Origin: Octopus vulgaris
Taxonomy: Eukaryota
DNA length: 64,000 bases
Assembly: GCA_951406725.2 (NCBI GenBank)
Contig: OX597840.1
Coordinates: 29,450,001-29,514,000 of the forward strand
Reading direction: 5' to 3'
The notes under the pieces were generated by a model, which saw nothing but the letters and a program-made list of their open reading frames with translations, was not told where the DNA came from and did not search any database. This document shows, in pieces, positions 28,809 through 50,972 of the stretch. The position numbers and the translations under genes were made by a program. Numbering within the stretch: the stretch's first letter is position 1; every line of letters begins with the position of its first letter.

Positions 28809-29513
28809 CCATATATATATATATATTAATAGTTATCACCATATTGATATGGCAGTCTTATAAATATAAGACTAAAGTTGTTGCTGATTAGCTCCAAGAG
28901 GCCACCGCCTGAAGCTAGCTATTTGACATATATACATATCCACTACCGTATACATGTATATATACACATATGTAAATACATATATGCAATCGTCAGATTT
29001 ACAATTATTCCAACACATCTTCAGGTTATATTTCAAAATATTACATATCTAATACAATTAAGCATTAAAGATTAAAAATTAGAAATAAAAATTATACTTT
29101 GTAATATTAAGAATTAAAATTTATAGATTATGCATTATGAATATGAATTAGTATATATATCAATCATGTAATATCAAGTATATGTCAAACACAGAATGTG
29201 AGATATAAGATTATACATCAGAATTAAAATGTCTGTGCTTAAATGTGATATATAAGAGATAAAATTCAAATTGCTGGTACTAAAATGGTAATTAGAGGAA
29301 GATGATAGCAGGGAACTATGGGTATTTATAGGTGATTAGTACCAAGGAGGGGGGGTAATTACACTATACATAGTTTTAATTTTAAATTATCCTCTATTAT
29401 CATTTTCACATTTACATATATTAGGAGGGATATATAATTTGTTATTATATAATTTTAGTAATATTTAATTCATATATTTATTTAGAATACTGCATTATTT
29501 TTTTTATTTATAT

Positions 29514-29685
29514 AGGCGCAGGAGTGGCTGTGTGGTAAGTAGCTTGCTAACCAACCACATGGTTCCGGGTTCAGTCCCACTGCGTGGCATCTTGGGCAGG
29601 TGTCTTCTGCTATAGCCCCGGGCCGACCAATGCCTTGTGAGTGGATTTGGTAGACGGAAACTGAAAGAAGCCTGTCGTATATATG

Positions 29686-29726
<41 letters not shown>

Positions 29727-29937
29727 CTGTGTTTGTCTCCCTAGCATTGCTTGACAACCGATGCTGGTGTGTTTACGTCCCCGTCACTTAGCGGTTCGGC
29801 AAAAAAAAGAGACCGATAGAATAAGTACTGAGCTTACAAATAATAAGTCCCAGGGTCGATTTGCTCGACTAAAGGCGGTGCTCCAGCTTGGCCGCAGTCA
29901 AATGACTGAAACAAGTAAAAGAGAAAAGAGTGAAAGA
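29514..29937 (+). mobile_element. SINE family A, full length
   Basis: aggcgcaggagtggctgtgtgg...gactgaaacaagtaaaagag. Confidence 0.85.
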
Positions 29938-30216
29938 GAATGTGTTCAAGTGCTTTAGAAATAAAATTAAGTGGTTATTTGATTCAGGGTCTGGGGGTTC
30001 AGTACTTCATTTTACTAAATGTAAAATTACTTTGGTGCCTACATTTAACTCCTCGTTCATCATATGTGTTTAATAAATCATCTCTAGACTGTAGTAGTTT
30101 CATAAATTCTGTTATGCATAATAAAAGGCAGTGCTCCAGCATGGCTTCAGTCAACTGACTGAAACAAGTACAAGAAAAAAGAAACAACACACACACACAC
30201 ATATTTATATATAAAT

Positions 30217-45789: not shown

Positions 45790-46526
45790 ATTCATCTGTG
45801 CAGGTACTTCCTGTACACCAAATCAGAGTAAAATCATTGAATTGGTTGGCAGAAATCTAAAAATGCACTTGCAGCTTATTCTGAAATGTCTCAAACAGAT
45901 TCAGTAAATGGGAAAAACGAACCATATCATGCTATATAAAACTGATAAAAGATGGGTTTCTTAACGTTGGCAGTATTTATGCACCAACAATGTGCTGTTC
46001 TGATGAAACTGTAGGACAGTTTTATGATGATCTAGCACAATTATCGAAGAAAGTACCAAGTTCTGACAAACTGGTCATATTGGGAGATTTCAAGGCAAGA
46101 GTTGGAAAGGGCTATGTTTCAGGGCCTGTTTTGGGCTGAAATGGGATTGGAAAATGTAATAAAAATGGAGTAGATCTTTTGATGTTTTGTACTGAAAATA
46201 ATCTGGTTGTTACTAACACTTTGTTTAAGCAGAAAACAGCTGCAGGAGAAATACCTAGCCAAAGATAAACATCTGTGCCTGGCTTTTATTGACATGGAGA
46301 AAGTCTTTGACAGGGTCCCCCAATCCCTTATCCCAAACTGCATATCATCTAGACTGACTCTCTCTCTAATTAGTTGGGCTGTGTCCCTCTCCATGACTTT
46401 CATTACCTGATCCAATAACTTGATACCTCTGTAATTATTCACATCTAATGCATCACCTTTACCTTTGTAGCAGTTGGCTATGGTTCTGTTACACCAGTCA
46501 TTGGTTATGACTCCTTCATGTATCAC
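45790..46526. mobile_element. Scrambled LINE (RTE-like) APE and RT fragments in both orientations
   Basis: Plus: IYAPT..FYDDL..LVILGDFKARVG..NLVVTNTLFKQK and LCLAFIDMEKVFDRVP; minus: YKGKGDALDVNNYRGIKLLDQVMKVMER..QFG. Confidence 0.8.
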
Positions 46527-46539
46527 CTGATTGACTGTA

Positions 46540-46900
46540 CAGGTGAAACTGATGTACTATTTGATCTTCATCGATAAAATGAATGACTGCTAAGAGTTGC
46601 ACCTTTTTGGTGATGTCTGTTGACTCATTAACTTGCAATGCAAAAGGTGAGTACTTAAGTTTATCACTATATACATTTTTCTCGATATCAGAAGATGTTT
46701 CTAAACTACACCTGTGAACTTTATCGTTGGACAGTGGAATCTTGCTTAATTCTTTTGCTGCTTCATTCCCAAGCATTGCCAAGTATACCTTTTTGCATTC
46801 AAGCAAAATGAATGACTCGCCTACAGTATAAGCTTTCATATTTTGTGTTATCAGTTCTGAGACTTGGTGGGAAGCGATTTGAGCTTTCTCAGAGACAATC
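46540..46900 (-). mobile_element. hAT (Buster/Charlie, ZBED5/8-like) transposase fragment
   Basis: AYTVGESFILLECK..KIPLSNDKVHR..FALQVNESTDITKKVQLLAVIHF. Confidence 0.8.
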
Positions 46901-46904
46901 ATTT

Positions 46905-47135
46905 TATTGGGTTGTCCGGAAAGTTCATGCCGATTTATAGTAGCTTACCTTTTGACTTATTTTAGAACATTGCTGAGTCCATAAAATAGGATTTGACTAC
47001 ACCATCATTTAGAGCACAATTTAAGCTATCTTTTCGTGGAAGAAAGTTTATGTTCCTATAACCTGTGTTAATTCTGTAACCCTTTAAAATGGGAGATAAG
47101 AAAGTTCATTTTCGGCACTTGATGCTTTGGGAACC
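46905..47135 (+). mobile_element. Mariner 5' end fragment
   Basis: tattgggttgtccggaaagtt TIR-like start; MGDKKVHFRHLMLWE. Confidence 0.55.
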
Positions 47136-47574
47136 AGACAAAAATTGCACGTCTGTGTCTGTGTTTGTCCTCCGTTTGGCAACTGGTGTTGATGTGTTTA
47201 CATCCCATGGTTTAGCAGCTCAGCAAAAAGAAACTGACAGAATAAATACCAGGCTTTAATAAAAAGCAGAAAAGGCAAGTACCAGGATTGATTCGTTTGG
47301 CTAAAATCCTTCAACGTGGTGATCCAGCATGACTGAAACTAACAAAGGATATAAACAGAAAAGAAAGAAAACAACCAAATACTGTCGTACAAAACATTTC
47401 AAAACTGTGTCAAAGCACAAAGAATTTGCAGTCCAAGAAACCCCTAAAACCAAATTCCGTTTTGAAAATATCAAAGAATAGCAAAATGAGGAAAAAATGT
47501 GTAATGAATAAAAAAATATCGTTGAATCTATTCAGCAGTTAATCTTAAGTTGTCTTCCAGGATGTATATCAATA

Positions 47575-47643
47575 TTCTTTTCTTTTTATTCTTTTACTTG
47601 TTTCAGTCACTTTGACTGCGGCCATGCTGGAGCACCGCCTTTA
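47575..47643 (-). mobile_element. Family A SINE/LINE 3' tail fused to U6
   Basis: Minus taaaggcggtgctccagcatggccgcagtcaaagtgactgaaacaagtaaaagaataaaaagaaaaag. Confidence 0.85.
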
Positions 47644-47644
47644 T

Positions 47645-47697
47645 AAAAAAAATATGGAACACTTCACGAATTTGTGTGTCATCCTTGCGCAGAGGCC

Positions 47698-47737
<40 letters not shown>

Positions 47738-47747
47738 ATTGCCGAAG
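47645..47747 (-). pseudogene. U6: U6 spliceosomal snRNA retrocopy
   Basis: Minus cttcggcaatacatatactaaaattggaacgatACAGAGAagattagcatggcctctgcgcaaggatgacacacaaattcgtgaagtgttccatatttttttt; a few substitutions and a disrupted 5' stem-loop. Confidence 0.93.
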
Positions 47748-49533
47748 TATATGTATTAAATATATAACATTAATCTGTTTATTACGAGATTAATCCATTT
47801 CCTTTATCTCAGAATCTTTGATTTTATCCCAAATTCATGCTGAAAGATGAAAATCAAAATTTCTTTAGTAACACAAATATCTCTTGAAAGGTTGCTGAAT
47901 AAATATAGATCTTATTTTGTTGCTTTTATGTGAAAGCAGATGATGGCTCAAAGAGATTCTAGATCAGAAATTTCAATTCTTGTAAAGCGAAAAGATGGGT
48001 TTTGGAGATTCTTAGAAGACTCTTTAATGATTCTCTGAAAATTGCCTTCAAGACATTTGGTTTCTCTCTTGTATTTGGTATCTCACTTTCGTAAAAGTTA
48101 TTTAGATTATAAACTAGTTTGCTTCCCTCCTCAGCTCATGCCAGTATTGTATATACATATGTATGGCTGCGTATTTATATAAATGTATGTATAGAGAGAT
48201 GGATGGATGTATATATCATCATCATCATCATCATTGTCATTGTTTAATGTCCATTTTCCATGCTGGCATGGGTTGGACGGTTTAACCAGAGCTGATAAGG
48301 CTAAGAACAACACAAGACTCCATGTCTGTTTTAGCATTATTTCTATGCCTGAATGCCCTTCCTAATGCCGACCACTCCGCAGAGTGTACAGGGTGATTTT
48401 TATGTGGCATCAACACCAGTGCTTTTAACATGACACCAGCACATATGCTTTTTATGTGGCACCTCAATGAGTGCTTTTCATGTGGTACTGGCTCCAGCAT
48501 CAATTCCGCTGAGGTGGACAGGTTTTCTTCAGTATATCAAGGCACCAGGTATCACAATCCTTTGCCATCACCTTCATAAGGGTCAGTGTCTTAAGATCTG
48601 CTTCTATTTTACATTTTTGATGACACAAGTTCGCTAGTACACACATGCACACACACACATATATATATACTTCGAAACAGCTGTAAGACCTATCTATAAA
48701 TGCTCTAATATCTACACAGTCTTGGTTTTTTTATCTTATTATGCAAAATATCCTTATATATATATATATAAATATATATATATATTCATTACCTATTCAT
48801 ATAAGCAAACTAGATATTAAACTGACATTTACCATCGAAGCCCAGCCATCTGTTTACATAGGGCCAACTTAATTAAAAATCCCTTCCATGGAAGTATTTG
48901 AGTGCCCTTCTGTAGTAGTATAAACCTCTTAGGGCCACTTCCTGCCCACTGTTAAGCAGCTGGTGTTCAGCTGTGAAAATATGGAATGTTTCTCCTATGC
49001 ATAAATTGCATCTTGCCCCACCACCCCAATTACATAAGGTTCAGCTAAGCCTATTATTTCCCATTCTATATTAATGTTAGTGTTTCTATATTTAAGGACC
49101 AGATAAACACAAGCCCATACCATGCATTTTCTCTGTATTCCTCTCTAATGCTAGCTAAACCTACATACAATCAGTTTGCTTGAGACCACAGCAGTGGATG
49201 GACTTCGAATAAAGTTACAGTTGAAAGGAACAGGATGCAAATATAATTGCTAATTTTCTATGCAGCAATGTGCATCAGACAAATTTGAATCAAATATGCT
49301 GTATTAATTAACTGTAGAAATAATATGCATATGTACTAATTTCTGTATTCATTGTAATTGTCTTGGACATACAATTGGTAGAATATTCATAATCCAATGA
49401 AGTGAATCAGGATTTACCCATCAAATGCTCATACCATGCATTTTCTGTCTATCTCTAGGAGCTCCTTACAACCCGATGTGGTTAGCCTGAACCTGGATTA
49501 TAAAGGGGTACTCATATAGTGTCTGCCTGGATA

Positions 49534-49997: not shown

Positions 49998-50034
<37 letters not shown>

Positions 50035-50972
50035 GGCGGTGCCCCAGCATGGCCACAGCTCATTAGCTGAAACTGGAAAAATCAAAATCAAAATCAAAAT
50101 CATATATATATTTATTTATTTTCTTGTACATGTATTTTTATCTTGTAATTTATTTTGTATTTTTATTTGTATCGTTTTTACGTCCTGTTTGTGTTACATT
50201 TTATTATTTTTCTTTCATGTTTTTACCCCTCTGCAAAGTAATTTTATTTTAATTCTCTCGCAGGAAGGGCTAGTTTCGATGAGTCGTGTTCTGTCTTACC
50301 TTCGAAACACGCTAGAGTCGAACTAGAGACAGCTCATGAAGGGGATTTTTCCTTGTGTAGTTTGTCTTGTACTCTGTTTTCCGGTTGTAAAAAAATGGTT
50401 TGTTCCATGTTTGTTTTTACGTTTTCGTTTCTCGTTGAGTTCTACGTCTATTTGTGGTGTCCTGTACTCACGTATATATATTTATATATGCATGTATATG
50501 TACATGTAGATGTAGGTACGTACATATATGTTTGTATGTATGCATATATTTTATTTATTACACTATATATATATATATATATATGCCTTTCTCCTTGGTA
50601 GCTTTCTTCAGGTATCTAGGTTCCAGTTCAATCTACTGATGATACCTCTCTGTACAAACATATTTTGTCTACACAAGAATTACAGCTTTGGTTTAATTTG
50701 CGAGCTTATTATTCACTGCGACATGTATCCCTGCAGAGAAATGTCCACACATTATATTTTGCGCAGCTCGTTGCAGACAACTAAGCCGATTCATGTTACA
50801 AAATACATTTGTATATTCTTCTGCAATATTGCCAAGTAAGGAAAAAACAAAATTACGATGTCTACTTTATGCTAACAATATACAAATATATTACTAGGCT
50901 CCTTAAAGAGCTGTTGGAAAATTCCAGAAGGTTGCAATATTAATTTTTAAAAATTTTATTTTATTTTAGTTG

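Follow-up and report, generated by a model that had tools for sequence, protein, structure and literature searches.

The locus described here raises the question whether a U6 snRNA copy and the retroelement 3' end adjoining it arrived separately or as one unit, and which machinery placed them there. It lies within a stretch of 64,000 nucleotides of Octopus vulgaris DNA, referred to as the window (assembly GCA_951406725.2, contig OX597840.1, positions 29,450,001 to 29,514,000). An earlier note on this DNA proposed a chimeric retrocopy made by a non-L1 LINE machinery in an invertebrate, and this proposal is supported by the APE- and RT-encoding LINE and the family of U6-tail chimeras described below. 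In the preferred reading, which is considered probable, the dead U6 retrocopy and the LINE/SINE 3' tail stem from one insertion, in which a CR1-like reverse transcriptase (RT) stopped and jumped.

The U6 copy at the locus

Rfam family RF00026 identifies a minus-strand U6 at 47648-47752 (105.6 bits, E 1.8e-26), the sole Rfam match at gathering score within the window. Together with reading of the sequence, this confirms the earlier description of a nearly full-length minus-strand U6 whose T8 is joined to a tail. The locus is composed of the following features:

47748..47757, minus strand: replacement of U6 positions 1-6 by about 10 nt that repeat U6 positions 14-23
47645..47747, minus strand: U6 snRNA retrocopy of the L304 gene variant, from position 7 to the oligo-T, with three substitutions, two of them at CpG
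47644..47644, minus strand: extra A between the U6 oligo-T and the tail, recognised by comparison with the family A context
47601..47643, minus strand: tail module T1, with 4 leader bases, hairpin 1 and hairpin 2 (z -3.6)
47573..47600, minus strand: A-rich short-repeat 3' end of the tail, from sequence reading

The oligo-T comprises 8 T (47652-47645), and the extra A is likely a non-templated base. A precise RtcB-type join, with 4-5 T and no extra base, is thus absent at this locus, although later slippage of the T run is possible. Compared by eye with the L304 gene over U6 positions 7-101, the copy shows C61>T, G79>A and C93>T. G79>A and C93>T lie at CpG, which bears out the two CpG-type substitutions reported before. 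On the scale of PMC13282606, as given in its excerpted text, the divergence of about 3% would date the copy to very roughly 10 million years ago. The copy is likely an inert fossil with no function.

The 5' end is truncated by 6 nt and carries the slip-like repeat instead. The earlier note had described a 5' stem-loop replaced by a duplication; an exact 12-nt duplication (47757-47746 and 47740-47729) is present, but the 3' arm of the 5' stem reflects the gene variant rather than decay, as the same arm is found in the L304 gene. The repeat at 47748..47757 is likely, though with low confidence, the product of an RT slip or of a second short jump, or it is possibly due to chance in an AT-rich target. 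A comparable 5' repeat with an 8-of-9 match occurs at L002, and target DNA is slip-copied at L306.

U6 genes and the missing promoter

Three U6 gene variants, represented by L302, L304 and the tandem array L309-L313, differ in their 5' stem, and all three give rise to retrocopies. Inspection by eye of L302, L304 and L309 located two motifs, near -78 and near -30, which we take to be an octamer-like motif and a TATA box, respectively. By eye, neither is present at the -78/-30 offsets in the flank of the U6 copy, so that the Pol III promoter found at the three real gene variants is absent here, in line with the check that had been proposed. One of the three variants forms a tandem array of at least seven copies with a changed tetraloop (L044-L050, G000:C1:139.42 Mb).

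The tail module, SINEs and the partner LINE

The T1 module at 47601..47643 is the 3' end of the family A SINE and is homologous to the 3' UTR ends of CR1-like LINEs. The tail had been described as the last ~65 nt of family A; it is indeed the same module, but its length is about 70 nt and it contains a 1-nt insertion. From 47643 to about 47573 it agrees at 77-95% with approximately 20 further tails in the window. Three features in the window provide context:

29512..29930, plus strand: full-length family A SINE with tRNA-type head and T1 tail, the reference for the tail context
30122..30184, plus strand: stand-alone T1 tail with the same 5' boundary
50028..50110, plus strand: stand-alone T2 LINE tail in a (TA)n tract, with the same 5' boundary and without U6

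A fold into two hairpins is shared by ten tails, and 7 of its 12 pairs show two-sided changes. The covariation score was reached by none of 500 shuffles, the structure being taken from the same alignment. The LINE tail is structured and has short tandem repeats at its end, as in the CR1 group.

The 3' UTRs of a LINE family end in the tail types T2, T3 and T5. One T2 LINE copy has an intact 1039-aa ORF with APE and RT, ending ~25 nt before T2. ORF2 matches PF14529 and PF00078 over the cut-off, and the upstream frames give a weak CCCH finger match below the cut-off; an ORF1 ahead of an ORF2 with APE and RT agrees with a CR1-group LINE. Among named proteins, the nearest relative comes from Argonauta hians (59%). 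We take the element to be CR1-like on the strength of its C-terminal motifs rather than of a tree. An RTE element was considered as partner and rejected, as the LINE upstream of the T2, T3 and T5 tails has CR1-like motifs instead. The tail was also considered as a known ribozyme, and none lies over the L172 LINE tail among the matches listed.

At the loci examined, T1 was found on SINEs only. Within 658 kb, 91 of 122 T1-class matches follow a family A body, a class that includes a few T2/T3 tails. No LINE with a T1 tail appeared among 11 tblastn rows over the loci examined, and in a broader search all 30 sampled of 5,995 matches were SINE variants. Because no LINE with a T1 tail was found, the donor RNA of the tail on the U6 copy is likely family A SINE RNA. 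One SINE body carries T1, T2 and T3 at the same joint (window 28120, L037 and L369).

Close to the locus, the minus strand of the window at 46507-46944 contains a 146-codon open stretch with a weak DUF4371 match (E 0.005), which adjoins an RT-like fragment. It may be a remnant of a hAT/Buster-type transposase.

U6 3' ends across the genome

A search of the genome with the chimera returned 40 scored matches, and the U6 3' 24-mer has 206 exact genomic matches. From the first 100 of the latter, 95 U6 3' ends were examined, the 5 on C9 being left out. A lone tail follows in 36 of the 95, corresponding to ~30 events without duplicated loci (T1 11, T2 8, T3 8, T4 8, T5 1). Six of the 11 T1 loci belong to one segmental duplication, L038-L043. 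Another 30 ends are joined to a 5' head, namely of the family A SINE (18), a second SINE (8), a third SINE (1), a 5S-like sequence (1) or U6 itself (2). The remaining 29 were sorted by eye into 8 genes, 7 non-repeat flanks, 3 AT-rich flanks, joints inside a SINE (3), inside a LINE-like element (1) or to another repeat (4), one family A head with a deletion, one tail cut inside hairpin 1, and one unclassified end.

T1 and T2 were each found behind every one of the three U6 variants, T3 and T4 behind at least two. This combination of variants with several tail types points to separate events and excludes one master element. The U6 part begins within the first 9 nt of U6 in 42 of 51 copies.

More complex arrangements were also observed. 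L055 (G000:C1:187750244) is a tRNA-U6-U6 multi-part retrocopy recognised by Rfam tRNA and U6, L061 (G000:C2:23366751) has U6-U6 head to tail, and L067 strings together U6, a family A SINE, (TA)n, a further SINE and a T2 tail. Fold-back inverted U6 copies with fragments on both strands occur at L074, L075, L083, L116 and L089. At L073, L077, L092, L107, L307, L322 and L330, U6 is joined inside another repeat family with short internal repeats. At L086 (G000:C4:80599046), U6 is joined to the 5' end of a sequence that we take to be 5S-like by eye rather than from Rfam.

A fixed joint and the 5' ends of the LINE

The oligo-T had been expected to join the tail at variable points. The joint is fixed instead, with 19 of 21 scored U6-tail events keeping 3-4 donor bases before hairpin 1 (five duplicate loci were dropped; T4, T5 and copies missing strict anchors were excluded). 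Extra bases are present at 16 of these 21 junctions and absent at five, and the T runs vary from 2 to 9. SINE-head junctions are alike, with extra bases in 16 of 24.

The same boundary is used by tails without U6. Exact T2 tails number 1,753 in non-LINE context (0 of 30 sampled were LINE), while 2,847 continue into LINE. Of 30 sampled from the latter, 15 stop upstream at various distances from 11 to 1,131 nt, and just one of the 30 stops within 66 nt. A further 277 T2 copies end inside hairpin 1, mostly at the start of the upper stem, and 21 are devoid of hairpin 1. From these counts, the boundary is a peak and not a pile-up of ever shorter copies. The peak exceeds neighbouring positions by roughly a hundredfold or more, an approximate ratio because the patterns counted are of unequal length and degeneracy.

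For T3, 31 of the first 100 among 1,158 matches were in non-LINE context by eye, 13 with a variant upstream being taken as LINE, as checked at L370. In two LINE subfamilies, lone tails make up about a third of the copies. Lone T1 tails amount to 3 of 133 after 24 T2/T3 LINE ends were dropped, and a lone T1 tail is found in 6 of ~27 U6 events on family A parts. In T1, T2 and T3, the boundary is at or beside a C-A or U-A step.

Other captured RNAs

The boundary also captures pre-tRNAs. Thirty sampled lone T2 tails are preceded by U6 in three cases, by tRNAs with trailers in two, and by a SINE ending in T in one. Among 30 of 53 loci with oligo-T before T2, a tRNA-like 3' signature is found at 16, compared with 86 of 1,617 control T tracts. 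Six of the 30 pass Rfam tRNA, with trailers, and one keeps its intron. Several other tRNA-like acceptors are 5'-truncated and retrocopy-like. ARAGORN at relaxed score produced many spurious calls and was replaced by Rfam plus a motif test with control.

T2 tails captured one and the same unusual tRNA-like RNA at four unlinked sites (L213, L223, L229, L239), where its leader and trailer are identical. At L216, L219, L226 and L232, a non-tRNA sequence with oligo-T precedes T2 and has no listed Rfam match at the joint; these sequences are candidates for unannotated Pol III RNAs.

U5 is joined to SINE heads in 2 of 26 matches and to a lone tail in 0 of 26. For U2, the best 30 of 48 matches all look like genes; this sample is biased and uninformative as a control. 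The U2 genes (L241-L270) are dispersed, with 48 scored full-length matches on many chromosomes, and several have near-identical flanks, as though moved as DNA blocks.

Probable insertion as one block

Long target-site duplications were found at 1 of 51 loci against a null mean of 0.46, and thus not above chance. At 3 of 52 U6-tail loci, a paralogous empty site lacks U6 and tail together, as a single block, with overlaps of 2-4 nt. Where lone tails lie inside other repeats, the flanks close around the tail in 3 of 60 loci. The flanks of the locus at 47573..47757 are unique, with no paralogue in the DNA compared. Among the sequencing data sets listed, 13 contain its 5' flank, all of them as assembled contigs and none from RNA.

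Proposed mechanism

A CR1-like LINE RT would copy only the ~60-nt two-hairpin tail and stop once it is 3-4 nt beyond the 5' edge of hairpin 1. It would then add one base and jump to the oligo-U end of U6 RNA. All chimera classes would follow if the enzyme runs off, adds bases and then jumps to an oligo-U end. By analogy with zebrafish L2 (PMC4176376, in excerpt), the tail hairpins may be bound by ORF2p. Whether the stop marks the putative 5' end of an RNA trimmed to the bound hairpins or the point of enzyme release is rated at about even odds. Each of the two stops coincides with the 5' edge of a helix. An RT passing through would already have opened these helices, so the position of the stops speaks for an RNA trimmed to a protein footprint.

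The two routes named in the earlier note fare differently. Template switching is strengthened by the pre-tRNAs and the extra bases, whereas RtcB ligation fits the family less well. Pre-tRNAs with oligo-T trailers are caught at the same point as U6, which favours template jumping over RtcB. Pre-tRNA trailers end in a 3'-OH, and SINE and U6 5' ends are phosphorylated or capped. As these partners have no RtcB-ligatable ends and yet account for a sizeable share of the chimeras, we infer a jump rather than ligation. The small stand-alone class (3 of 133) speaks against the preferred reading for T1. Extra bases alone are no proof of a jump either, because 5' extra bases are in any case found on about half of the L2 insertions in zebrafish (PMC4245944, in excerpt). 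In the excerpted text of PMC8857657, R2 jumping in vitro is blocked by 3-nt A overhangs, L1 chimeras are credited to pre-ligation, and jumping in vivo is doubted.

Alternative explanations

The tail might have been a tail-only element that landed in the T tract of an older U6 copy. Such insertions are common and prefer AT-rich DNA, and no empty allele has been seen at the locus. However, a sense tail lies within a few bases of U6 at 36 of 95 ends, while the chance of a tail per site is ~1e-5 (our estimate, taking ~1e4 tail-only copies per 2.8 Gb). In addition, tRNA ends are ~tenfold enriched at the T tracts preceding tails, and where a chimera lies in another repeat, the flanks of that repeat meet around U6 and tail together, so that two insertions are very improbable. 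There is hardly any likelihood in a U6-headed SINE amplified from one or a few master copies, even though dozens of copies share one architecture and the O. vulgaris repeat library includes a 'U-L1' SINE family of 52,753 bp (excerpts of PMC13282606). U6 variants, tail types and junction bases occur in free combination, and the sole shared junction is the six-copy segmental duplication L038-L043. The upstream promoter required by U6 is absent in the copies. Moreover, the partner LINE and tail-only copies far outnumber the chimeras, and an abundant partner is Kojima's criterion for independent retrocopies (PMC4494074, in excerpt).

RNA ligation before retroposition deserves more attention, as it is the proven route for human U6/L1 (PMC6789731, in excerpt). 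Here, the tail RNA would be cut at a pyrimidine-A bond just 5' of hairpin 1 so as to leave a 5'-OH, RtcB would join it to the U6 cyclic phosphate, and the fusion would be retroposed. The C-A or U-A step at or beside the boundary in T1, T2 and T3 agrees with such a cut, as do the five of 21 tail junctions without an extra base and the seeming over-representation of U6 (3 of 30 tail-only T2 loci). Ligation is nevertheless considered unlikely, given the extra bases in the other 16 junctions, the T runs of 2 to 9, the use of the same joint by pre-tRNA trailers and the one U5 copy joined to a SINE head. U6 is joined to intact SINE and U6 5' ends equally often, and no ribozyme was found over the L172 LINE tail among the matches listed. 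A stronger contender, somewhat short of an even chance, accepts the fixed boundary but not a short RNA; the enzyme would be released past the bound hairpins, or AT microhomology would act at the first A-rich spot. Many tail-only copies within (TA)n are consistent with this, and the minor stop inside hairpin 1 likewise starts on T. Yet hardly any copies end in the LINE sequence immediately upstream, which is just as rich in A (1 of 30 within 66 nt), both stops are at helix 5' edges that the enzyme would by then have melted, and the junctions mirror those of true RNA 5' ends.

Implications

The preferred stop-and-jump reading can be extended to a more tentative proposal, which is rather doubtful at present. 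The LINE hairpin pair would act as a putative discrete ~60-nt, ORF2p-bound adaptor RNA, inserting itself and handing the enzyme to nearby small RNAs. If so, the adaptor would mobilise U6, pre-tRNAs and tail-less SINEs, and SINEs would acquire or exchange tails, the joint being the same every time. This would amount to a standing factory for SINE birth, seen as thousands of independent events. The proposal makes one sharp prediction, the existence of a short tail RNA.

The gain of tails by SINEs has long been ascribed to template switching. Intermediates are abundant here and share one joint, among them pre-tRNA plus tail, U6 plus tail, and one SINE body with T1, T2 or T3. The system also lends itself to a natural test between jumping and RtcB, in which partners that have ligatable ends are tallied against those that lack them.

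Comparison with known systems

The human U6/L1 chimeras resemble those of octopus in having a sense U6 5' of a shorter-than-usual LINE 3' end (PMC6789731, PMC11838501). RtcB needs a cyclic phosphate and a 5'-OH and yields precise joins (PMC6789731). As far as the excerpts of these sources go, octopus differs in lacking poly(A) and long target-site duplications, in its fixed junction, in its common extra bases, and in partners that RtcB cannot join. The L1-type traits, i.e. poly(A), a 10-20 bp duplication and a variable junction, were thus not found in octopus.

SINEU of crocodilians likewise has an snRNA head on a retroposing body. In the excerpted account, SINEU amplifies from masters and without a 3'-sharing partner, while the octopus copies are independent and their partner is abundant (PMC4494074). 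The traits of an snRNA-headed SINE, namely a shared junction, head-tail linkage and no abundant partner, were not observed. The 'U-L1' SINE family of the O. vulgaris annotation, with 2 recent insertions over 353 bp in the excerpts of PMC13282606, may be the octopus U6-tail chimeras under an automatic label.

Zebrafish ZfL2-1 and ZfL2-2 have a conserved 3' stem-loop, which is the ORF2p binding site in zebrafish L2 (PMC4176376). ZfL2 and the CR1-tailed mollusc SINEs (PMC4758252) share with octopus a hairpin tail with upper and lower stems and short repeats. In the excerpts of both sources, as in octopus, these tails are common to LINE and SINE, whereas a clustering of 5' ends at the edge of the hairpin is not mentioned in them. 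Run-off, non-templated bases and a jump to an RNA 3' end have been described in vitro for another clade and fit the octopus junctions, although the authors reporting jumping in vitro, in their excerpted text, doubt its role in vivo.

In the open-access literature, to which the search was confined, no cephalopod U6 chimeras or fixed tail boundary were found. The closest parallels come from vertebrates, with U6-L2 and U6-Mon-1 in platypus, U6-L2, U6-RTE and U6-AnolisSINE2 in anole, and one unresolved U6-CR1 chimera in turkey (excerpts of PMC4476161). The platypus and anole cases likewise involve a stringent LINE whose tail is structured, a U6 placed upstream of a short LINE/SINE part, and short target-site duplications, and they are put down to template switching (PMC4476161). 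Platypus copies are mostly truncated in the excerpted account, while octopus U6 is mostly near full length. Octopus also differs from platypus and anole in being a mollusc, in using one joint at a hairpin edge over five tail types, and in capturing pre-tRNAs as well. U6 chimeras with non-L1 LINEs are thus already known in vertebrates, and the genome-wide joint is the part worth pursuing.
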